DNA of 64,000 bases from Eledone cirrhosa (taxonomy: Eukaryota): the NCBI GenBank assembly GCA_964016885.1, contig OZ024742.1, positions 197,532,001 to 197,596,000 on the forward strand, read 5' to 3'. Each line of letters starts with the position of its first letter. The stretch's first letter is position 1. A program made the position numbers and the translations under genes. This document shows positions 4,077 through 57,123 of the stretch, one piece after another. The notes below the pieces were generated by a model, which was not told the DNA's origin, ran no database searches, and saw nothing but the letters and a program-made list of their open reading frames with translations.

Positions 4077-4242
4077 ATTAAAAAAATAATGAATAAAACA
4101 ATGAAACAGTTCCTTATATTAAACAAAAAAAGTTCATTATTTAACGATCGTTTCTAGGACATATATGTGTTAGAATTGGCATGCATATTCAACAGATCTA
4201 TGTACAAAATTATACAAAATTATACAAACTATATATATATAT

Positions 4243-4430
4243 ATATGAAAGAGTCGGGACCCCGACGGCTGAGCTCTTGCCGTTTCAACAGCTAGTTCCA
4301 CGAACTGTTGAAATAGCAAGAGCTCAGCCGTCGGGGTCCCGGCTCTTTCATATGACCAGACTCTACTACCCCAAGTATCGGGTACTCTGGTGAGTAATTA
4401 TCTAACCAGTTTCTTACTGTATCCATCTTG
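4243..4430. mobile_element. palindromic copy of the short half-hammerhead pLTR-like family
   Basis: Inverted repeat 4243-4353 with ~50-bp arms. Homologous to 23876-24013, 32266-32378, 56080-56221 and 56896-57093. Confidence 0.6.
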
Positions 4431-4493
4431 ATTTATATATATATATATTGTTATATACATACATTTATATATATATATACATATACATATAAA

Positions 4494-4619
<126 letters not shown>

Positions 4620-6622: not shown

Positions 6623-6663
6623 CTATATATATATAGATAGATATATATAGATATATATATATA

Positions 6664-9600
6664 TCGTTATACTTTGGGAGGGTCATGTTGCCAATAAGAA
6701 ACACACGCACCAGTTGCTTTCACTCCAATTTATTATAAATTAAATTTATAAATTTAAGAATTTATAAATTTCCGGTTGGTTGGTTGGTTCCACAAACGGA
6801 CGGTTGTTCATATATTGTCAAAGTTCTTTCGTCACACATTCTGTGACCTCTTCAGTGACTGGGGATTCTTCTCTTTGTTTTGTGCCTCTCCTTTGTTCTG
6901 TCCTACGCCATCTTGTTTTTGTGTGTCTTGTGTGTTTCGTTTGCGCATGTGTTACATCCGGGTGTCTGTGTGTGTTTTTATTTGTTTATTTATTTGTTTA
7001 TTTACATGTTACTGGTTGCTGGTTTGTTCTATGTGTGTGTGTGTTTTCATTTTGTCCTTAATTATAAGTTGAGATGTTGCTATTCCACTCATATTTTCTA
7101 TTTAATTTTGGTTGGAGTTCATTTATGTTTATTGCTTCTGTGATTTGTCTAAACATTGCGTCTGTTCTGTGTGTAGATTCTATTTTTATTTCTATGTTCT
7201 CTAATTTGCCCTTATGTTCTATTTTAGCATATTGGTAGAGTACTGATGAATCTTTTCTATCTTGATGTTCTCGCCAGTGTTCATTTATCCGTTCTCCTAT
7301 ACTACTAGCTGTCTCACCTATGTACATTATATTCTTATTTTTACATTGTCCTTCAGTACATCTTATGCTATATACTACATTTCTAGTTTTACAGTTAATA
7401 TGGGGGCTTAATTTACTGATTATACATTTCTTACCTATACAGGGAGGTCTTTGAAAACGGTATATATTACTAATAAGTGTTTTTATGGAGGTACCTGGTC
7501 TTTCTACTATCTTAATATTTAGTTTAAGTTTATCTAGGGCCCTTCTAAATGTGTAAGCTAATTCACCTCTAGGGGTTGTATCGATGAACATTACACTCTG
7601 GTATTTATTGCTATCATACCATGAGTTTATTTTATTAACCTTATTCCTAGTTCTTTCTATTCTATTCCAAACTTTGCTCCTATACAAGGGGCAGGTCCCA
7701 TTTATATCATTATTCACCATTTTTCCCATTTAGTTCTGGCTCCCCTATATACTCTGATTTTATCTCTTTGATTGTAACCAGAGAACTGCATACGATGGAT
7801 GAAGTGTTGTATGTGTCTCTCTAGTTCTTTGGAGTTGCACATGCGTAACACGTTTCTCATCACCCGTACTAAATCCGCAATCAGTATGTTGATTTTGGTG
7901 TGATCCGAAACAGCTGAGTTTCGATGGATTAGATATTTGGAAGTCATGGGTTTGGCATAATGGGAATGGAGAATTTGTTTTTTGTTATTAATGGTTTCTA
8001 ACCAGAGCTCTGTGTCTAGTACAGGTAATCGAAGGTTGGGGTGTTTGCTTGGGTAGTCTATAGTAACTCTAATACTCTGGTGGATGGAATTAGCTATTTG
8101 CTGGATGCTTTCCATGGTGCTTTTCTCTAATTCCTGACTGTTCTCTAGTGGGGGTATTTTTACTACGATGTTTATGTCATCAACGTAGCAAGAGTACAAT
8201 ATCAGGGTTAAGAGGTTGCTGTCTACTAATTGTTCTTTAAGTTTAAGTTTAAGTTTATTGTCCCACCATACCATGAATAGGTTAGCTATGTCACCTGCAA
8301 TGCTAACACCAATGTCTGCTCCCTCCTCTTGGATATATGTTTTTCCATTACAATTGAACATATGTTCCTTAAGGGTTAGTTTTATACTGGCCCCCACCGC
8401 ATGTGCAATCATTTTCTTCAGTTCATCATGGTTTTCAGGGGTCCGTATGGCTCTGGTCCACCCGTTCCATCTTTATGTGTGGGTTTTCTTGGCCATTGAA
8501 GTAATGGTAGGTGGTCTGCCTCTTGCTGGCCTTGTGGGGCAGAGGTTGCTAAGGTCATACGTATCTAGATAATCATTACTATAGGTAAGTTTAAGTAGGA
8601 GTCCCAGCTCACTGGTATCAATCCCATGGAATTCAACATTGCTCTCACTGATCATTTCTACGCATTTCTCCACAACAAAATCCATGTCAATGGATGGTTA
8701 TAGGGACACAACATCCATACTACTTATTATACAGTCTGTTGGGTCCCTAGATCGGTTATTTTCATTGATTCTGCTGAGGAGGTCCTCCGTGCTGTTACAT
8801 ATATCCGGGGACATTTCAACGATGGGGTGTACGATCAGGGAGAGGAGGAAGTAGGAAAGTATGTAGTTACTAGCAATGTTAGCTCCACAGACTGGCCGTG
8901 TTGGTGGTCCTGTGACTGGGTCACTTTCGTCTTATAGTCTTTTAGAAGCCCATACAACGCATTGTTCCAGGCCTGGAAGTTGTTGGCAGTCCGTTTATTG
9001 GGCTGCATTATGTTTGTCCACATCATCATATGAGCATTGAGGGTTTTCTCCCTATTCTCATGCTCTTGTGGTGTTACTTCTCTTGTGTTAGTGATGTGGA
9101 GTTGCATTGCCTGGATGTAGTTTGGCAGACTGTCAACCGACATTCTGCCAGACTTGTCTGTTGGAAAGCATGCAAACTCCATTACGTGAGCGTTGCATGA
9201 GCTTCCGCAAGCCATTTGCAGATTTTTCTCCCAGTTGCTGGGCCTCCATTCTATTTTGCTTCTTGCTATACTGTTCTATAATATTTCTAAGTTTAGATCT
9301 AGCTATATTAAATTGTGCTTCTGTTTGTTCATCGACCTGCGACGGCAATTGCGTGCGTTTGTTAAAAGCTAAAGTCGTGGCGTGGACTTGTCGTAGGTCG
9401 AAGGACATATCGGAAGGATTATAAAAAGTAAAATTCCAGGCTACTGCTTTATGTGTACTATTGCTATTGTTATTGTTAGTTGTGTTGTTTCTATTTCTAT
9501 TTCCACCAACAGCCTCATGGTCGTTTCTATGTCTCATTATTACTCCTGTCTCTTTTCTCTGGCTCATTGTTATTATCTACTCTATTTTGTGTGTCTGTGT

Positions 9601-9880
9601 GTTCGTCCTGGTTATTTTCTCTGTCAGTATCGGTAGTCTCCCTTCTTATTTCAATCCAATTACCTTCCCTTACTGTCTTACTGTCACTACCTGTTTTCTG
9701 TGCCTGTGTGTCTGTTAAGATTGTGGTGGTCGTGAGAGGCATAGGATGTGTGGGTGTTGTTGTTGATGTGGATGTGTGTTGTTGTTGATGTGTGTTGCTG
9801 TTGATGTGTGTTGTTGTTGTTGTTGTCTCTGTGTATGTTGTTACTATTGTTGTGTGTGTTGTTGTTGTTAAATAGAACAT
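6664..9880 (-). mobile_element. Penelope-like element family A (RT plus C-terminal GIY-YIG, probably Nematis-like), frameshifted
   Basis: RT motifs PTDKSG, GADIGVSIAGDIANLFM, YVDD and LPVLD. GIY-YIG motif VVYSIRC...YIGET...RINEH...EA...P.LN in ORF 7058-7729. The 3' pLTR at 6664-7140 is inserted in (TA)n. Confidence 0.9.
6817..6859 (-). ncRNA. minimal type-I hammerhead ribozyme in the family A pLTR
   Basis: gtca-CTGAAGA-G-gtcaca(gaatg)tgtgac-GAAA-gaac-TT-tgac. Stems I and II pair and stem III is minimal. Confidence 0.75.
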
Positions 9881-9888
9881 AAGGGCAA

Positions 9889-10469
9889 ATTAGAGAAGAT
9901 AGAAATAAAAATAAAATCTACACACAGAAAAGACGCAATGTTTAAACAAATCACAGAAGCAATAAACATAAATGAACTCCAACCAAAATTAAATAGAAAA
10001 CATGAATGGAATAGCAATCACAACTTACAATTAAGGACAAAATGAAAACACACACACATAGAACAAACAACCAGCCAGTAACATGTAAATAAACAAATAA
10101 AAACACACACAGACACCCGGATGTAACACATGCGCAAACGAAACACACAAGACACACAAAAACAAGATGGTGTAGGACAGAACAAAGGAGAGGCACAAAA
10201 CAAAGAGAAGAATCCCCACTCACTGAAGAGGTCACAGAATGTGTGACGAAAGAACTTTGACAATATATGAACAACCGTCCGGTTGTGGAACCAACCAACC
10301 AACCGGAAATTTATAAATTCTTAAATTTATAAATTTAATTTATAATAAATTGGAGTGAAAGCAACTGGTGCGTGTGTTTCTTATTGGCAACATGACCGTC
10401 CGAAAGTATAACAATATCGGTTTCAACACACGTTTTCAGATAAAGAATCTTGCTAAACAAATTCAGAAA

Positions 10470-10472
<3 letters not shown>
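9889..10472 (+). mobile_element. inverted pseudo-LTR of PLE family A with ~60-nt terminal extension; HHR at 10219-10261
   Basis: Reverse complement of ~6664-7200, plus an extension ending TTCAGAAACG before (TA)n. Confidence 0.85.
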
Positions 10473-10543
<71 letters not shown>

Positions 10544-23828: not shown

Positions 23829-23875
<47 letters not shown>

Positions 23876-23877
<2 letters not shown>

Positions 23878-24013
23878 CGAAGGAAATGTGGTAAGGAACC
23901 AGGTGGACCATAACGCACCAAAGTACTCAATACTTAGGGTAGTAGAGTGGGTAATAGGAACAAGTAAGACCCCGACGGCTGAGCTCAAGCCGTTTCGACG
24001 GCTAATTCTGGAC
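23876..24013 (-). mobile_element. short half-hammerhead pLTR-like element in (TA)n
   Basis: Near-identical to 56896-57033. The minus strand has gccgtc-GAAA-cggct(tgagctc)agccg-TC-ggggtc. Confidence 0.65.
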
Positions 24014-27544: not shown

Positions 27545-27582
<38 letters not shown>

Positions 27583-27584
<2 letters not shown>

Positions 27585-30500
27585 CGGCGATGAATTAGTT
27601 TTGCGAGGTTTTTTATATGAAATCGTGTGTCGAAACAAATATTGTTATACTTGGGAGGGTCATATTTGTGTAATATTGCCAGAATTAATAACAGAACACA
27701 CTCACTGTTTGGTTGGTTTTCGCTTCTCGCTTCTGTGTCTTTTATATCGGTAATCTAACTTACTCGGTCCTCAATGTTGCCATTGACTGACCAACGGTCA
27801 AAAATAATACAGATACAATATAGACACAAACACATATATATAGTTTATCATAAATCTTTCGTTGCACATCTGCAACATCGTCAGTGGTGCTATCTTTTCC
27901 TCCTGTTGTATTGTATGTCTACGCCATTTTTATTCAGTCTGTCTTTATATTTATTTATTTATTTGCTTGTTTGTTTATTTTATTTTGTCTTCTTTGCGCA
28001 TGCGTTTGCGTGTGTGTATAGTGTTTTGTTTGATGTGTGATGGGTGACTAGTGTGTGTTTATGTGCTTGTTGTTATTGTGCTTGTGTATGTATTTATTTA
28101 TTTATTTATTTATTTACTTTATTTTATTTACTTATTTATACTTCTCTTAGGTCAGTGTTGTTTGTTTGGGTGTTGTTGTTATTCCATTCATTCTTTCTGT
28201 TTAGTCTTGGTCTTCTAATTTCTATTTCACTGGCCTCTCTGATTTGCCTATCTGCTGGGTCATTTCTATGTTTAGATATTATTCTAATTTCTATGTTGTC
28301 TATGTTACCGTCATGTTGTTGTCTAGCATGTTCGTATAGTACTGACCCGTTTTTTCATCCTTTTAGTTCCCCCCAGTCCTTTCACCTATGCTACGAGCTG
28401 TCTCACCTATGTATGTTGTTGTCATGTTTCTGCAAGTACCATCTGTACATCTTATGCTATAGACTACGTTTCTAGTTTTACAGTTTATCCGGGGGTTTAC
28501 CTTACATATGATACATTTCCTATTGGTACAGTGGGTTTTCTTAAAAGGGTAGGTTTTGCTGATCAGGGATTTTATGGTGGTTCCTGGCTTTGCTACCACC
28601 TTAATTTTTAAGTGGGTCTTTCTCAGGGCCTTTCTACACTGGTTAGCTAATTTCCCTCCAGGGGTAGCGTCCACAAACATGACACTCTGGTATCTCTGGT
28701 TGTCGTACCATGAGGTGGCTTTCCCTATCTTATGTCTAGCCCTATCTAAGCTATTCCATGATTTGCTCCTGTATAATGGGCAAATTCCTTTCATGTCCAG
28801 TTCTATGAGGGTCTTATACTTCTCCATGGCTCCTTCGTATACTCTGACTCTGTCTCTTTGGTTGTAGCCAGAGAACTGCATGCGGTTGATGAAGTGTTGG
28901 ATGTGTCTTTCCATTTCTGTTGTGTCGTACATGCGGGACACATTCTTCATCACTCGTACCAAATCTGCGATCAGAATATTAAACTTAGCACTACTGGACA
29001 TTGCTGAGTTTTTTAGTATCAGGTATTTGGAGGCCATGGGTTTAGCATAGTGTGAGTGGAGAATTTGGGCTCTCTCGTCTATAATGTTAATCCAGAGTTC
29101 TGTGTCCAATACAGGTAGTCTATTGTTAGGGTGTTTGGAAGGGAAGTCGATAGTTATAGTTATACTCTGGTGTATGGAATTAGCTATCTGCTGGATGCTT
29201 TCCATCGTGCTACGTTCTAAATCAAACTTGTTAGTGCTCTCTAGTGGGGGTGTTCTTATAACTATATTGATATCGTCTACATAACGAGAGTACATGATGA
29301 GGTCTATGGAGCTCTCAATAAGGAGATCTTTAAGTCTCCTTTCCCACCATACCATGAAAAGTTTGGCAACATCACCAGCTATGCTGACGCCGATGGCTGC
29401 TCCCTCATTTTGGGTGTAGATCTTCTCGTTGAACTTAAATATGTGGCCCTTTAGGGTAGTTTTGATACTAGCCCCTATTGCATGTGCGACCATTTTTCTT
29501 ACCTGATCATTGTTTTGGGGGGTCCGTATAGCTTTGGTCCACCCAATCCACCTTCCTATGGGAGTCTTTTTTGTCATAGAACTCTGGATTAATATTATAG
29601 ACGAGAGAGCCCAAATTCTCCACTCACACTATGCTAAACCCATGGCCTCCAAATACCTGATACTAAAAAACTCAGCAATGTCCAGTAGTGCTAAGTTTAA
29701 TATTCTGATCGCAGATTTGGTACGAGTGATGAAGAATGTGTCCCGCATGTGCGACCCAACAAAAATGGAAAGACACATCCAACACTTCATCATATAGGTC
29801 TACTAGGGCAGAAACGTCTAAGGTCATGGCTGTCTGGGTAGTCAGTGTCGTAGGTAAGTCTAAGTAGGAGGCCCAGTTCGTCTGTGTCGACGTCGCAGAA
29901 CTCTACCTCACTCTCAATGATCATCTCCACACATCTTTTCACAGCAAAATCAATGTTAATGGATGGGTACAGTGACACCACATCCTATGCTGCCTATTAT
30001 GCAGTTGGATAGGTTCCTGTTTTTGTTGCACTCACTGATTCTGCTGAGGAGGTCCTCTGTACTGTCACATACATCTGGGGACATCTTGATTATGGGGCGT
30101 ATAACCATTGAGAGGAAGTAGGAGATCCTGTAGTTACTAGCTATATTAGCTCCGCATACGGGTCTTGTTGGTGGTCCTGTTGTCGGGTCGTCGACTGTCT
30201 TGTGGTGGTACAAGGGTGGTATGCCATTGTTAGACGCCTGGAAGTTGTTGGCAGTGCGTCTGCTTAGCTTTAGGATGTCAGTCCACATCATCATGCGAGC
30301 GTTGAGGATTTTCTCTCTCCCATCGTGTGTTTGTTGTGCAATTTCGCTCGTGTTGGTGATGTGGGGTTGCATAGCCTTGATGTAGTTCGGCATGCTATCT
30401 ATTGACATCCTACCAGACTTATCCATGGGTAGACATACTACCTCACCATCCCTTGTGCGCTGCTTGAGGCTAACCAAGCCTTCTACAGGTTTCCTCCCAA

Positions 30501-31706
30501 GTTGTTGGGCCTCTGGTCTGCTCTGTCTCTTAGTATACCTGTCTACTATTTGTCTAATCTTATTTCTAGCTATGGTGAACTGTGCCTCTGTCTCGTCATC
30601 TATTTGTTGTGGTATGCAAACTCTTTTATTAAAGGGTAATCTCGTAGGATAGATATTATCCATCTTATATGTTTTGTCAGCTGGGTTGAAAAATGGTTTC
30701 TCTAAGGGGTTGTCATTATATCTGTCGTCATAGTTGTGTGTGTGTTGCTATTATTGTTATCATGGTGGTTGTTGTTGTTTCTATCATTAGCATTATTATT
30801 ATTGTTATGATTGCTAGATGTATTGTTGTTTACTTCACCGTTATTGTTGTTGTTACTGTTATTTCTACCATTGTGGTTGTTACTTTTATTATGTTTCTTG
30901 TTTTTGTTGTGTCTATCATTGATGTTGCTACATGTACTATTTCCATTATTACCACAGTGGTTATTGTTGTTGTTGTTCGTATTGTTACCGTTATTACTAC
31001 TATGGTCGCTGCTGCTGTGTCTGTGGTTAATGTTTCTATTATTATTATTATTGTGGTTGTTGTTGTTCTGTCTATCGTTAGTATTATTACCATTATTACT
31101 ATTTCTCACTTTCCTGCTATTGTTATTGTTATGGCTGTTATTTCTATACTCAGAGTTATTGTTTATATTACTACTACCGTTATTATTGTTGTTGTTGTTG
31201 TTGTTTACCTTTGCATTCCAACGTATTTTTGTGAAACACTTTTCCAGCTCCGTTTGGCACTCCATAGGGTTAATCTTTTTGTAGATGGCAAATTTTGGTG
31301 GTAGCCGCAGGATTTGTTGTTCTTGTTCACTGATTAAAGTGTTCCCATAAATATTTACTGTGTGGTCATTGGTAAATTCTTCCGGTAGTTTTACATCAGT
31401 CATACGGATATTGTTGATGTTATCTGGGTATTTTTGAGAATATTCTATTTTCCTTTCTTGTAGTTTTTTCTTATTCATCCATTCTAATTTCTTATTGAAA
31501 TGCCTATTGCATTCGTTTCGGGCGTATTTCGTTTCACGTCGGATGACGCTCATAAAGTTATCCCTCTCGTTTGGTGTGGTGAGATTTAGGACTTCCTTAC
31601 CGTTAATGCGTTTCTGTCTGTAAAGTTCGTTGACTTTTGTGTATGTTGTTCTTTTCATATTAACTGTTATTGTGTGTTTTAGTCGTTCGGCTTGTGTTTT
31701 GTTCAA
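27583..31706 (-). mobile_element. Penelope-like element family B (RT plus GIY-YIG, probably Nematis-like), near full length and disrupted
   Basis: ORFs 30702-31706, 29956-30663, 29790-29981 and 28363-29577 carry LRLPPKFA, DKSG, RPVCGA, SLYPSI, GAAIG, RYVDD, YIGETARS. The pLTR at 27583-28200 lies in (TA)n. Confidence 0.9.
27847..27888 (-). ncRNA. minimal type-I hammerhead in the family B pLTR
   Basis: acca-CTGACGA-T-gttgca(gatg)tgcaac-GAAA-gatt-TA-tgat. Confidence 0.65.
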
Positions 31707-31736
31707 AATTACACAAATATGACCCTCCCCAAGTAT

Positions 31737-31798
<62 letters not shown>

Positions 31799-32147
31799 TT
31801 GGGGAGGGTCATATTTGTGAAATATTGCCAGAATTAATAACAGAACACACTCACTGTTTGGTTGGTTTTCGCTTTTCGCTTCTGTGTCTTTTATATCGGT
31901 AATCTAATTTATTCGGTCCTCAATGTTGCCATTGACTGACCAACGGTCAAAAATAATACAGATACAATATAGACACAAATATTACAGATACAATATAGAC
32001 ACAAAGATGAAATAGTAATAACACAGTGAGTGTGTTCTGTTATTAATTCTGGCAATATTACACAAATATGACCCTCCCCAAGTATAACAATATTTGTTTC
32101 GACACACGATTTCATATAAAAAACCCCGCAAAACTAATTCATCGCCG
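31707..32147. mobile_element. inverted and direct pLTR end fragments of PLE family B
   Basis: Copies of 27583-27830 in both orientations, separated by (TA)n. Confidence 0.75.
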
Positions 32148-34465: not shown

Positions 34466-34796
34466 ACGTTCTCTGGCAATGAACGGAAAAAACGAAGATA
34501 ATACGTCATATGTAGAGCGGGGAGAACAATTGCACGCAAAGACAAAATCACGTAAATGGTATAACTGAAGTCGTAGACTAAAATTCTAACTAGGAAACCG
34601 AATGATTCTCGACTTCAGATTTAAGAAATAAATACAGAGGTAATTGAAATTAAATAAATACATGTTATTTTAATAAATATTTGCTCTACGGTTCTTATAT
34701 ATTTGATATATATTTATCCTTATCGAGCCCTCTTTGGATTTTAGTCTTCAAATTTATTATTATTACTATATGTATATATATATATAGTAATATATT

Positions 34797-36560
34797 TCGT
34801 TTCTGAATTTGTTTAGCAAGATTCTTTATCTGAAATCGTGTGTTGAAACCGATATTGTTATACTTTGGGAGGGTCATGTTGCCAATAAGAAACACACGCA
34901 CACATCGCTTTCACTTCAATTTATTATATATTTATAAATTTATAAATTTCTGGTTGGTTGGTTGGTTCCACAACCAGATAGTTGTTTATATATAGTCATA
35001 GTTCTTTCGTCACACACTCAGTGACCTCTTCAGTGACTGGGGATTCCTTTCTTTGTTTCTGTGCCTCTCCTTTGTTCTGTCCTACGCCATTTTGTTTCTG
35101 TGTGTGTGTTGTGTGCTCAGTCTGCGCATGCGCCACATCCTGTGTCTGTGTGTGTTTATGTTCATTTATTTATTTGTTTATTTACATGTTACTGGTTGGT
35201 TGTTTGTTCTATGTGTGTGTGTGTTTTCATTTTGTCCTTAATTGTAAGTTGTGATGTTGCTGTTCCACTCATATTTTCTATTTAATTTTGGTTGTAATTC
35301 TTTTATGTTTATTGCCTCTGTAATTTGTCTAAACATTGCGTCTTTTCTGTGTGTAGATTCTATTTTTATTTCTATGTTCTCTAATTTACCCTTGTGTTCT
35401 ATCTTAGCATGTTGGTAGAGTACAGATGATTCTTTATTATCTTGAAGGTCTCGCCAGTGTTCATTTATCCGTTCCCCTACACTACGAGCTGTCTCACTTA
35501 TGTACACTATATTTTTGTCTCTACATTGTCCTTCAGTACATCTTATGCTATACACTACATTTCTAGTTTTACAGTTAATATGGGGGCTTATTTTACAGGT
35601 TATACATTTCTTATCTATACATGAGGGTCTTTGAAAAGGGTATGTCTTGCTAATAAGTGTTTTTACGGAGGTACCTGGTCTTTCTACTATCTTAATATTG
35701 AGTTTATGTTTATTTAGGGCCCTTCTAAATTTGTAAGCTAATTCACCTCTAGGGGTTGTATTGATGAACATTACACTCTGGTATTTATTGCTATCATACC
35801 ATGAGTTTATTCTATTAGCCTTGTTCCTAGTTCTTTCTATTCTATTCCAAAATTTGCTCCTATACAAGGGGCAGGTCCCATTTATGTCATTATTTACCAT
35901 TTTTTCCCATTTGGTTCTGGCTCCTCTATACACTCTGATTTTATCTCTCTGATTGTAGCCAGAGAACTGCATACGGTGGATGAAGTGTTGTATGTGTCTC
36001 TCTAGTTCTTCGGGGTTGCACATGCGGGACACATTTCTCATCACACGTACCAAATCCGCAATCAGTATGTTGATTTTGGTATGGTCCGAAATGGCCGAGT
36101 TTCGGTGGATCAGATGTTTGGAAGTCAGGGGTTTGGCATAATGGGAATGAAGGATTTGTTTTTTGTTGTTAATGGTATCTAATCAGAGCTCTGTGTCTAG
36201 TACAGGTAATCGATGGTTGGGGTGTTTACTTGGGTAGTCTATAGTAACTCTAATGCTCTGGTGGATGGAGTTTGCTATTTGCTGGATGCTTTCCATTGTG
36301 TTTTTCTCTAGTTCCTGACTGTTCTCTAGTGGGGGTGTCTTAACTACGATGTTTATATCATCTACGTAGCGGGAGTACATTATCAGGGTTAAGGGGTCTT
36401 CTAATTGTTCTTTAAGTTTAAGTTTAAGTCTACTGTCCCACCATACCATGAATAAGTTAGCTATGTCGCCTGCAATGCTAACACCAATGGCTGCTCCTTC
36501 CTCTTGGGCATATGTTTTTCCATTAAATTTGAACATATGTTCCTTAAGGGTTAGTTTTAG
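34797..36560 (-). mobile_element. PLE family A, 5'-truncated copy; HHR at 34994-35038
   Basis: ORFs 36183-36536 (GAAIG, RYVDD) and 35238-36053 (GIY-YIG). The HHR reads agtca-CTGAAGA-G-gtcac...gtgac-GAAA-gaac-TA-tgact. Confidence 0.9.
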
Positions 36561-36795
36561 ATGATGGCAAAATATTAAAAGATTTTAAACAGTTTTCAAA
36601 TTAATCTCAAATTAAATTTTCGTCCCTTTGGGGGCGAAAAATGAGATTGCCACCCAGCTGACAATTCAGCCTGGGGGGTTAATCTACAAAACAATGTGTT
36701 TTTTTTAAACAAGAATTTCTGTTTTTTGTAAATAAATTGACAAACTTACCAGCAAAATTGTGTGCGCCCAGCTACCAGATAGATAGATAGATAGA

Positions 36796-40171: not shown

Positions 40172-40272
40172 CCACTCTCAAGAACGTGAAACTAATAAAC
40201 CTTTGTTCGTACTGCCTCTCTGTTTTGTTCCCGTTCCATTTTTCACTATATATATATATATATATATAAATA

Positions 40273-40332
<60 letters not shown>

Positions 40333-40339
<7 letters not shown>

Positions 40340-40920
40340 ATACTTTGGGAGGGTCATGTTGCCAATAAGAAACACACGCACCAGTTGCTTTCACTTCAAT
40401 TTATCATAATAAATTTATAAATTTAGGAATTTATAAATTTCCGGTTGGTTGGTTGGTTCCACAACCAGATGGTTGTTTATATATTGTCAAAGTTCTTTCG
40501 TCACACATTCTGTGACCTCTTCAGTGACTGGGGATTCTTTTCTTTGTTTTTGTGCCTCTCCTTTGTTCTGTCCTACGCCATCTTGTTGGCTAAACTATTG
40601 TGGCTAAACAAGATGGCGTAGGACAGAACAAAGGAGAGGCAAAAAAACAAAGGAAAGAATCCTCAGTCACTGAAGAGGTCACAGAATGTGTGACGAAAGA
40701 GCTTTGACAATATATAAACAACCATCTGGTTGTGGAACCAACCAACCAACCGGAAATTTATAAATTCCTAAATTTATAAATTTATTATAATAAATTGAAG
40801 TGAAAGCAACTGGTGCATGTGTTTCTTATTGGCAACATGACCCTCCCAAAGTATAACAATATCGGTTTCAACACACGTTTTCAGATAAAGAATCTTGGTA
40901 AACAAATTCTGAAACGAAAT
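40333..40920. mobile_element. palindromic solo pLTR pair of PLE family A with HHRs on both strands (40486-40528 minus, 40666-40708 plus)
   Basis: Inverted arms of ~255 bp matching 6664-6915, flanked by (TA)n. Confidence 0.85.
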
Positions 40921-40958
40921 ATATATATATATATATATAAATATATATACATATATAA

Positions 40959-53709: not shown

Positions 53710-53794
<85 letters not shown>

Positions 53795-53853
53795 CAAGGC
53801 TCTGATACCATCAACACTATACACACAGAGCTGGCATATCTAAGAACTGACTA

Positions 53854-53909
53854 ACTGCCTGAAGAGGTCATAGCCATTCAATGGATATCATCGAAATATA
53901 TATAGCAGT
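53854..53909 (+). ncRNA. minimal type-I hammerhead in a solo pLTR-like segment
   Basis: actgc-CTGAAGA-[stem II with 2 mismatches]-GAAA-tatata-TA-gcagt. Confidence 0.65.
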
Positions 53910-53950
53910 AAATAAAGGATTATGAGTTCATGCAATTGACATATGTTTCG

Positions 53951-54005
<55 letters not shown>

Positions 54006-54039
54006 AGAAATTAAAAGATGGTTAAAGAAGTTCCATATA

Positions 54040-54105
54040 TTTTATTATACGTATTTCGAAAACAACATCATCTTGGGACAAAAATTGTGTTCTCATCAGA
54101 TAAAA
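54040..54105 (-). ncRNA. minimal type-I hammerhead; a partial inverted copy lies at ~55148-55216
   Basis: ttttat-CTGATGA-gaacacaa...ttgttttc-GAAA-tacgta-TA-ataaaa, with a palindromic stem III. Confidence 0.7.
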
Positions 54106-54242
54106 TAAGGTAACATGATATGAGGCCTAAAAACACTTGTCAAAAGGAAAGTAGGAAAATAGAAAAAAGGAAAAGAAGAAGGAGAAAAAGGAAAAAGAAA
54201 GTGAGGAGAGGAAAAAAGAAAAAAGAAAGAAAGAAGAGAGAA

Positions 54243-54325
<83 letters not shown>

Positions 54326-55305
54326 TTTTGATCAGGAACGCTGTCAAAATGAAAACAGCTGTAGATAACGGTTAAAAAGTAAATTGATGAGGTGTATGTG
54401 CGAATATTATAGATGGTATTCAAATATTAGAAGTCTAAAATATAGAAACTGGGTGTATTATTTTATATTGGGTTTAAATACTAAAACTTGGATTAAGAAG
54501 TTTAAAAATGAAATTAAATTAAAAATGAAATTAAATAAAATTAAATTAAAATAAGTATAAAAAAAGATTTTTATATAAAATAAATTAAAATAAAATAAAA
54601 AAGTAAAAATAGTCTATCTATGTCAAAATTAAAATTTTTTATTAAAAATCCATATATGTGGGGGTATACTATTTAATTATTATTTAATATCAACAAGTAA
54701 ATAAAGGAAATTGCTAGAATGATTTATAAAATTAGAAAAACATATGACGTCATAATTTGTTTACAAAATCTACGAAGGTTTGAGCGAAAATTTAAGACTA
54801 TCGAAAAAAGGTCAAAGGCTTTAAATATGCTGAGAAAACTAAATTAATACATTGTAGAATATAATGAAATACGTGTAAAAAAAAATATATATATATATAT
54901 ATGTAAAAAGAATATATATGTAAAAAAATATGTGTGTAAAAAATTAACCGTTATTCGTGGAAAAAGTTATAGGACATTAGCTATACACTTTGTGAAAGGT
55001 CTTGAAGGATTTATGATTACAAAGACCAAATAAATCTGTTCTTCTAATTATTATAGAGTTGAAATTCGAGATAATGGTAAATTTTTCAACTAGACATAAA
55101 TTATAAACACTAGATGTGGAAGCATTAAAGTATGGAGATGCGTTGTAGATGTTGTCTTCGAAATGCGCATAATAATATATATGGAACTTCTTTAACCATC
55201 TTTTAATTTCTTCTTTAATATATACTCCAGTTCTACCAACTGTTGAGTGTTACTTATCTGGGATATGCATAGTTTTATTGTTCTACAATATTACTCACCT
55301 TCTAC

Positions 55306-55344
<39 letters not shown>

Positions 55345-55575
55345 AAAAGAGAGCGAGAGAGAGGGGGGATTATATATATATAACCATCATGTTTTGTGAC
55401 CCTATCGCTATTCGCCACCTGTATATATATGTGTGTGTGTGTGTTCACACATTCTAACTGAATTAATATTACCTTGTGAATTAAGATGAAATTCAAGGTA
55501 TACTGGGTCGGGAATCTTACCCATGAAATATTTACAATAAAGTGATATATATATATATATATATATATATGTATA

Positions 55576-55887
55576 AATATTTCGTATCTCCAAGGAAATA
55601 CGGTTTTAGGAAGCCGTAGCTATGCAAACGCCGGGGGGCTAACGCCCTCTGGTGATGTCCAGCAGAAGCAAGGAGGACAACCGTCTATGCATTTCAGGCT
55701 TAACTGGCCTTCGTCAGGACGGTCCCTCCCACCGCTTGCGACTGCTGGACTAGAAGACAGGCGAGAATATATACTTTTCTCGTCTGTGTAAATGAGGTGA
55801 TTAATCTCATTTGCATATGAAGCTGCATAAGTTGGCTCAACTTATAATAAAAAGAAATAGGATTTCGCTTCAAGCATAGCTTTATAC
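55576..55887. mobile_element. stand-alone structured, HHR-containing element (retrozyme-like candidate)
   Basis: GC-richer island between (TA)n tracts, with six hairpins plus a closing helix, an HHR and no coding remnant. Confidence 0.55.
55680..55723 (-). ncRNA. intact minimal type-I hammerhead ribozyme
   Basis: accgtc-CTGACGA-aggc(cagttaa)gcct-GAAA-tgca-TA-gacggt. All stems are perfect, stem III is palindromic (ATGCAT) and the cleavage triplet is AUA. Confidence 0.85.
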
Positions 55888-56011
55888 AATATATATATAT
55901 ATAGTGTTCGAAATGTTATGGCTCTTTTCCTGCTGCATCAAGCGTTAAACTGATATATTTCTTCATTGTACTGTGTCGCTTTCTTTGTTATTTCTGTTTA
56001 CTTTTTATACT

Positions 56012-56895: not shown

Positions 56896-56897
<2 letters not shown>

Positions 56898-57088
56898 CGA
56901 AGGAAATGTGGTAAGGAACCAGGTGGACCATAACGCACCAAAGTACTCAATATTTAGGGTAGTAGAGTGGGTAATAGGAACGAGTAAGACCCCGACGGCT
57001 GAGCTCAAGCCGTTTCGACGGCTAATTCTGGACGTCCAGAATTAGCCGTCGAAACGGCTTGAGCTCAGCCGTCGGGGTCTTACTCGTT

Positions 57089-57093
<5 letters not shown>
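56896..57093. mobile_element. half-hammerhead pLTR-like element with a perfect 2x60-bp spacerless palindrome
   Basis: 56974-57033 is the exact reverse complement of 57034-57093. Confidence 0.8.

Positions 57094-57123
<30 letters not shown>

Follow-up and report, generated by a model that had tools for sequence, protein, structure and literature searches.

The Locus and Its Features

The window, that is, the whole stretch of DNA analysed here, comprises 64,000 nucleotides of a contig of Eledone cirrhosa (OZ024742.1), and it holds, between two (TA)n microsatellites, one copy of a non-coding repeat with a unit of 322-323 bp. The repeat belongs to a dispersed, young family with more than 1,000 hammerhead-bearing copies; the copy in the window is a monomer, with one arm, one unit and one hammerhead. 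The features referred to below are the following:

55545..55569, no strand: left (TA)n target microsatellite, read from the sequence
55570..55892, minus (the likely functional strand): complete 323-bp unit, junction to junction, delimited by the tandem period and the junction in other copies
55570..55579, minus: end site A (no tail), a likely reverse-transcription start in the junction hairpin
55657..55750, no strand: long helix around the hammerhead (pairing 55657-65 with 55742-50), found when either strand is folded
55669..55680, minus: weak match to the host snRNA distal element
55680..55723, minus: minimal type-I hammerhead whose stem III is palindromic; cleavage predicted at 55686/55685
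55739..55743, minus: predicted transcription start, about 20 nt before the hammerhead, placed by host U6 geometry
55768..55773, minus: TATA box, 44 nt downstream of the 12-mer
55806..55817, minus: 12-mer with octamer, matching the proximal promoter element found in U6, U6atac and RNase MRP genes of the host
55843..55853, minus: end site B, where the tail ends, about 48 nt beyond A in a tandem, overlapping the T5 run of the hammerhead strand
55893..55903, no strand: right (TA)n target microsatellite, read from the sequence
34786..36584, minus: 5'-truncated copy of the likely partner Penelope-like element (PLE), outside the insertion, found by family search; its chimeras with the element lie elsewhere

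The sequence and a motif scan agree on the hammerhead, which an earlier note, made from the letters of the window alone, had placed at the same positions. It consists of stem I, a CUGAcGA core, a 4-bp stem II, GAAA and a palindromic AUGCAU stem III, with cleavage predicted after AUA, between 55686 and 55685. An Rfam scan of the window called no family at the element, hammerhead included. Also present, as the note had described, are the octamer (55809-16), the TATATA (55768-73) and the flanking (TA)n on both sides, and no PLE coding remnant adjoins the window copy. The boundaries given there, 55576 to 55887, enclose the core of the element and fall short of its true ends: other copies stand head to tail, the former end meeting the former start via a 10-nt junction, and because the edges of the window insertion, TGTATA and AATAT, are the two halves of that junction, the insertion spans 55570-55892. 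The description "stand-alone" suits the window copy and does not extend to the family, in which most sampled copies are a partial tandem with an inverted arm.

Two other short repeats with minimal hammerheads lie nearby. The one at 53999-54150 on the minus strand, partly repeated at 55148-55224, has a type-I hammerhead and no adjoining open reading frame, and its end, a run of pyrimidines followed by (TA)n, strongly resembles site B; it may represent another family of retrozyme type or else the 3' end of a PLE. The other, at 53781-53953 on the plus strand, carries its hammerhead at 53854-53909, lies between (TA)n runs and also flanks element copies at two further loci (L073 and L141).

Family Size, Unit and Subfamilies

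A search of the animal's own genome (3.0 Gb) gave 2,364 candidates, and among the best 40, which were scored, full-length matches were 95-98% identical. Genome-wide, an exact hammerhead 35-mer occurs in 423 copies, relaxed hammerhead patterns in 1,041 and 1,139, and a 21-mer from the other end of the unit in 1,030, while reversed control patterns have no match; a metagenome scan with the hammerhead pattern likewise returned none. The period of 322-323 bp was obtained from tandem copies elsewhere in the genome, and the list of open reading frames in the window holds none of at least 120 aa across the unit. The detailed analysis covers 197 non-redundant loci, which are a non-random sample, since they were picked by best BLAST hits or exact pattern matches and lie mostly on contig C1.

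Four subfamilies (A, B, C and D) were found among the analysed loci. Subfamily A, which includes the window copy, has a median distance of 3.0% from the column majority, and subfamily B one of 5.5%. Subfamily C is marked by a two-sided change in hammerhead stem II (27 exact copies), and subfamily D by a U-U at the base of the same stem (91 copies). Tandems with at least two hammerheads exist in the family, as the exact motif forms 57 head-to-tail dimers genome-wide; none of these is chained into a longer array anywhere in the assembly, and the longest arms at the sampled loci reach about 2.3 units. Satellite DNA, in the form of a newt satellite-2-like array, had been put forward earlier as one candidate and was rejected, as no long tandem arrays were seen in the assembly, from which arrays may be absent.

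At C1:143.3-143.8 Mb and C12:16.9-17.5 Mb, copies of the element recur at intervals of about 60 kb, which suggests segmental duplication of large blocks in tandem. At two loci (L010 and L057), one foreign repeat lies to the right of the element and starts inside the junction AATA at three places; we take its start to resemble the ends of Helitrons or Helentrons.

Insertion Anatomy

Copies of the element lie inside (TA)n, and most of those sampled combine a partial tandem, about 2.3 units long at the most, with an inverted arm attached head-to-head; their inner ends vary. At 113 loci, 178 of 203 arms start at one of two fixed sites, mostly adjoining (TA)n: 92 at unit position 1-4 (site A) and 86 at unit position 264-287 (site B). 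Both sites are 3' ends of the hammerhead strand, and they are about 48 nt apart. A set of 153 loci yielded 104 blocks with two head-to-head arms and 53 other blocks. Where both ends of a two-armed block could be classified, 64 of 67 paired A with B, two paired A with A and one B with B, which departs strongly from random pairing (p = 3e-16); another 37 two-armed pairs had an unclassified end.

The inner arm ends are scattered along the unit. They do not pile up at the cleavage site, with 2 of 275 at unit 107-113 where 7 were expected, in a sample to which selection bias applies; deletions at the cleavage site are not raised, and there is no scar. The 35 arms that seemed to end at unit 312 turned out to be a chaining artefact.

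A partial tandem, an inverted copy that is truncated at its 5' end and joined head-to-head, a tail confined to one end and a microsatellite target are marks of endonuclease-bearing PLEs, as described in PMC8557442 and PMC3846280, and, with PMC11167929, the same works describe them for the Neptune clade, where the minimal type-I hammerhead also lies on the strand with fixed 3' ends. In vitro, according to the account in PMC11167929, a PLE protein cleaves AT-rich DNA and extends the two strands, using two internal RNA start sites that bound the tail. The end anatomy of the element is this "tail" signature of PLEs. The element differs from Neptune-clade PLEs in having no open reading frame, and in the length of its tail, which is about 48 nt as compared with 30-40 nt in the PLE literature and about 63 nt in the partner family described below.

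A Candidate Promoter on the Hammerhead Strand

Newt satellite 2 has an snRNA-type octamer promoter, and the earlier note had carried this idea over to the octamer and TATATA upstream of the ribozyme. We compared the element with the genome's own U1, U2, U6, U6atac, 7SK, RNase P and RNase MRP genes (L224-L284). In this host set, an octamer-like motif stands at -76 to -78 of U6 starts, and the corresponding 12-mer at -77 to -79 in the U6, U6atac and RNase MRP promoters. The motif occurs at 5 of the 20 U6 loci (three independent promoters), the others being 7 without a 5' end and 8 without the motif, and at one of the 8 U6atac loci, the best-scoring. A pattern built from four promoters (three U6, one U6atac) matches the hammerhead strand at 55817-55806, where all 12 letters are identical to one of the U6 promoters (L236). 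An RNase MRP promoter held out of the pattern (L277) carries the identical 12-mer at -78, whereas the 7SK, RNase P, four U1 and two U2 promoters lack it at that place. The host U6, U6atac and RNase MRP promoters that share the 12-mer thus lend the snRNA-type promoter idea independent support.

Among 40,000 shuffles, the 12-mer arose in 29, and the 12-mer with a TATA 42-50 nt downstream in none. It is intact in 168 of 207 element copies, and its spacing to the TATA box is 44 in 183 of 190 copies, 3-5 nt shorter than the 47-49 of five host promoters. A much weaker likeness concerns the host distal motif, which 10 of 13 promoters carry between -257 and -288. Of its 12 letters, the corresponding stretch of the element (unit 94-105) matches 10 in the most frequent allele, that of 175 of 291 segments, and 9 in the window copy; it would lie at about -260 only relative to the next unit of a tandem. 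A match of this weak kind occurs in 91 of 15,000 shuffles in a fixed 36-nt window, and in one tandem (L120) it is absent, with more than two mismatches. The genome as a whole has two kinds of proximal promoter, one with a TCAGT core at about -56 to -66 (U1, U2, 7SK, RNase P) and one with the 12-mer at -78 (U6, U6atac, RNase MRP). TATA-like boxes are also found in U1 and U2 promoters, and the distal motif at about -260 is common to the host genes.

Judged by its motifs, the hammerhead strand likely carries a candidate promoter of the U6 type. Of the features of a type-3 (U6-like) Pol III promoter, it has the host proximal element followed by a TATA box and departs from the host spacing of 47-49 nt. 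Furthermore, a T5-T6 run occupies site B in 95 of 109 copies of subfamily A, the youngest, while B and D mostly have T4 and C mostly no run; in subfamily A, such a run would be expected to end most Pol III transcripts once they reach about 215 nt. Because of the spacing and the T run, a plain Pol III reading is doubtful, and the polymerase could be Pol II or Pol III.

The Probable Penelope-like Partner and Chimeric Insertions

The abundant PLE family considered as the partner gave 39,722 candidates, and the best 126, which were scored, showed 97-100% identity, with open frames of up to about 1,240 aa. One complete copy (L222) encodes about 1,240 aa with reverse transcriptase motifs, a CX4CxxC linker and GIY-YIG at the C terminus, and has a hammerhead in its pLTR (terminal repeat); its tail, of about 63 nt, is the start of its open reading frame. 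In Pfam, GIY-YIG was matched in one of five window fragments and nothing matched the full partner frame; the Atlas neighbours of this frame carry GIY-YIG and RVT_1, and a PDB search with it gave 0 matches. The family qualifies as Neptune-type by its motifs (linker, GIY-YIG, pLTR hammerhead and tail), which serve here in place of a tree.

Fragments of this family lie in the window at 6661-8500, 27580-31808, 34786-36584, 9870-10500 and 40250-40945, with further copies at L220-L223. The family is very abundant and young and has long asparagine-rich stretches in the N-terminal half of its protein; its 3' UTR contains, upstream of its hammerhead, what we take to be NRF1-like and YY1-like motifs. 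Beyond TA-rich ends, no homology was found between the element and either four copies of the partner or the PLEs of the window.

At 5 of the 197 loci, a joint that contains no TA run connects the element with another repeat, and in four of these chimeras the other repeat is the abundant Neptune-type family or an older relative. One (L152) reads (TA)n, an element arm without a tail, a short palindrome, the PLE from mid-endonuclease to tail, and (TA)n, with the two parts head-to-head. In two others (L047 and L183), the 3' end of the PLE comes first and passes into the element via a short microhomology, and in the fourth (L125) the element runs into the tail of the older relative. The three latter chimeras are collinear and place the hammerhead strand in PLE sense. 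The fifth (L134) joins the element head-to-head with a repeat that is not the PLE partner. That repeat is two-armed and palindromic, lies in (TA)n with PLE-like ends and is also present in the window at 56896-57095, 23839-24013 and 4230-4541. The chimeras are supportive rather than conclusive, because five is a small number for 197 loci and roughly one chance neighbour would be expected from so abundant a family.

Together, the fixed ends and the collinear chimeras point to the hammerhead strand as the likely template. End anatomy and chimeras also favour what the earlier note had supposed, a non-autonomous hammerhead retroelement of the retrozyme type that is likely mobilised by (TA)n-targeting PLEs. 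Retrocopies of U6 and U6atac at four loci (L253, L252, L270 and L269) start directly after (TA)n, which suggests that the (TA)n-targeting machinery that copies the element may copy host small RNAs as well.

Circular or Linear Template

Sharing of alleles was examined at sites resistant to private mutation. Units of one arm have the minor allele in common in 33 of 39 comparisons, as against 14% for random pairs, and opposite arms in 156 of 207, which is close to the same-arm level (p = 0.30); both arms are therefore usually of one haplotype, and the comparison gave no sign of different templates for opposite arms. New alleles reach all units of later tandems. This sharing fits a unit-length bottleneck, such as a circle, and fits local conversion or a homogeneous source too. 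A circle could act as the template, since internal starts need no RNA 3' end.

The most serious alternative, which we nevertheless regard as the less probable one, accepts the element and its PLE partner as proposed and makes the template an uncleaved linear multimer, with no circle and the hammerhead as a passenger. It agrees with the in vitro results in PMC11167929, in which PLE hammerhead mutants inserted normally and unprocessed RNA was the main substrate, and it agrees with inner ends that avoid the cleavage site and with sampled arms that never exceed about 2.3 units. A linear template, however, could never outgrow the locus that it came from, and one subfamily after another shows multi-unit arms, each unit of which carries the diagnostic alleles; none of the 57 hammerhead dimers is chained into a long array, and a two-sided change in stem II became a subfamily. 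The position of inner ends speaks on both sides: near the predicted start, at unit 149-176, they are in broad excess (9.5 against 5.2 per 1000 nt, p = 6e-4) in the set of pattern-chosen loci, but not in a smaller, differently chosen set (p = 0.62), and a sharp peak at the predicted transcription start is seen in neither set. In the Xenopus study of bioRxiv 10.64898/2026.07.22.740005, only one of nine retrozyme dimers is described as cleaved in vitro, which speaks against the reading with a cleaved template.

Folding and the Two Strands

Both strands fold far beyond chance. The minimum-energy fold of the plus strand has -131.1 kcal/mol (z -10.1) and contains the longer helix and the hairpins that had been listed earlier, the fourth of them as 55788-55814. 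The minus strand folds at -105.1 kcal/mol (z -5.5) with stems I and II of the hammerhead formed, and 75 pairs are common to the two folds. As a circle, the minus strand still has z -4.9 with both stems formed, leaving the hammerhead free to form. When G-U pairs are forbidden, the strands become equal (-98.0 kcal/mol for plus, -96.4 kcal/mol for minus), so the difference between the folds rests on a few wobble pairs.

The earlier note had suggested that both polarities are under structural selection, the plus strand serving, for example, as an antisense template or a folded cDNA. The idea is worth testing because PMC3846280 proposed an antisense template for PLEs, and three observations agree with it: of 93 full units, 90 have the better fold on the plus strand, wobble sites fixed in all four subfamilies comprise 6 G-T and 1 A-C among 104 helix pairs, and private mutations are strand-symmetric in stems (C>T 20.1 and G>A 19.9 per 1000), so mutation bias offers no explanation. 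Strand-biased mutation as the source of the G-T excess was accordingly rejected, with no CpG excess among private changes either. The fixed 6:1, however, gives p = 0.125, and with the subfamily-variable sites (4 G-T and 7 A-C) the total becomes 10 to 8 (p = 0.81), so that the subfamilies taken together do not sustain the plus-strand bias. Two of the six fixed G-T sites lie inside promoter-like motifs of the hammerhead strand, and the only two-sided change among the helix pairs is that in hammerhead stem II. Moreover, the fixed ends are 3' ends of the hammerhead strand, the collinear chimeras put that strand in PLE sense, and a sense template works in vitro as described in PMC11167929. We therefore consider selection on both strands very unlikely.

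The count from which the suggestion started, six G-T and no A-C pairs on the plus strand, needs correction. In the stems chosen there, the window copy has seven G-T pairs, one of them private (55630-55653, A-T in most copies). The lack of A-C holds for those stems and fails elsewhere, at 55588/55597 in the alternative hairpin 55583-55602 (C-A) and at 55679/55724 in stem I (A-C), both of which are G-U on the hammerhead strand. Position 55761 is G, C or T across subfamilies and almost never A, the base that would perfect the hairpin. CpG hypermutability is not seen among private changes in the alignment of the element.

Relation to Known Elements

That the copies are nothing but 5'-truncated pLTRs of an unsampled autonomous PLE is the least probable reading of all, although the end anatomy is PLE-like, bioRxiv 10.64898/2026.07.22.740005 relates Xenopus retrozymes to pLTRs and our comparison covered four PLE-like families of the window and the partner, because the tail and the upstream neighbour of the element are the same 322-bp unit while the tail of the partner is its ORF start, because 0 of 59 free inner ends continue into a shared or collinear coding flank (an RT-GIY-YIG frame), and because the PLE coding sequence that adjoins the element in one chimera (L152) has the opposite orientation. 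A remote descent of the element from a pLTR is possible.

On its genomic features, the non-autonomous element can be classed with the metazoan non-LTR retrozymes, for which PLE origin and mobilisation have been proposed (PMC7229834, Cervera & de la Pena 2020; bioRxiv 10.64898/2026.07.22.740005, Li, Clavereau & Pollet 2026). As described in these two reports, they share with it a non-coding 150-450-bp unit with one type-I hammerhead, head-to-tail copies, a strong self-paired fold that leaves the hammerhead free, the lack of LTR, PBS and PPT, and co-occurring PLEs. The differences are several. Coral retrozymes have a canonical hammerhead, whereas that of the element is minimal and PLE-type; retrozymes form long arrays, whereas the element is dispersed, in partial tandems that stop at about 2.3 units and bear an inverted arm, and has no homology to the pLTR of its likely partner. 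The partner of retrozymes is named from co-occurrence, and that of the element also from end anatomy and chimeric insertions. Retrozymes are known with circular RNAs; for the element, a circle is a prediction from genomic sequence.

Among other repeats, Schistosoma SM-alpha and newt satellite 2, as described in PMC6765202, resemble the element in having a promoter followed by a hammerhead in short tandem repeats, and differ from it in that neither is described there with PLE-type inverted arms and tails. According to that description, SM-alpha is SINE-like and transcribed by Pol III, newt satellite 2 is transcribed by Pol II, and single copies of the Schistosoma repeats cannot propagate, because the promoter lands at the 3' end of the cleaved RNA. 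The candidate promoter of the element is like that of host U6 and RNase MRP genes, while PLEs, in the sources cited, use a Pol II promoter in the pLTR. The non-autonomous PLEs of Chlamys (MRC1), as presented in PMC8557442, are similar in being non-coding and in forming pLTR-like and head-to-tail insertions by PLE machinery; unlike the element, they have 3' sequence in common with autonomous families and are mostly without hammerheads. Titles and abstract openings, in a collection with most subscription journals outside its coverage, contained no report of a retrozyme with a U6-type promoter or of a retrozyme-PLE chimera; the supplements to bioRxiv 10.64898/2026.07.22.740005 may list similar families.

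A Proposed Cycle and Its Significance

We are fairly confident that the element is a hammerhead repeat with Penelope-type ends in (TA)n, that its hammerhead strand is likely transcribed under a U6-type promoter, and that a Neptune-type PLE RT-endonuclease likely copies it in trans. In the cycle that we propose, the 12-mer and TATA of a partial tandem would start transcription about 20 nt before the hammerhead, and read-through into the next unit would give an RNA with two hammerheads. These would cleave, probably as a dimer, releasing an RNA of unit length, which may then be closed into a circle by ligation; on this proposal, read-through and two-hammerhead cleavage would carry the upstream promoter sequence along. 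The PLE protein would then cut (TA)n and extend the two strands from two start points within the RNA, about 48 nt from each other and each serving one arm, a step for which the observed ends match the in vitro behaviour of PLEs. The product is what the insertions show, a partial tandem with a head-to-head inverted arm. The window copy is probably a dead end, because it is a one-armed single unit with one hammerhead.

More tentatively, the cycle might combine three particular devices: a captured host promoter of the U6/RNase MRP type split over the tandem junction, with the distal part in one unit and the 12-mer and TATA in the next; a hammerhead circle that copies this external promoter; and a PLE dimer that primes both target strands from two internal sites of one circle, giving the strict pairing of tail and no-tail ends. 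We put this forward as a possibility that is doubtful as a whole.

The enzyme that moves animal retrozymes and the manner of their transcription have so far been a matter of hypothesis, drawn from co-occurrence and pLTR similarity (PMC7229834; bioRxiv 10.64898/2026.07.22.740005). The present family supplies genomic footprints: PLE tail ends, chimeras with a named and still intact PLE family, and a candidate promoter open to comparison with the snRNA genes of the host. It further specifies the RNA, of 322 nt, and the partner protein to be put into the in vitro PLE assay outlined in PMC11167929, in which a circle could be set against a linear template and the rule of one site per arm could be tried. 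The family is thus a testable case of the transcription and spread of animal retrozymes.
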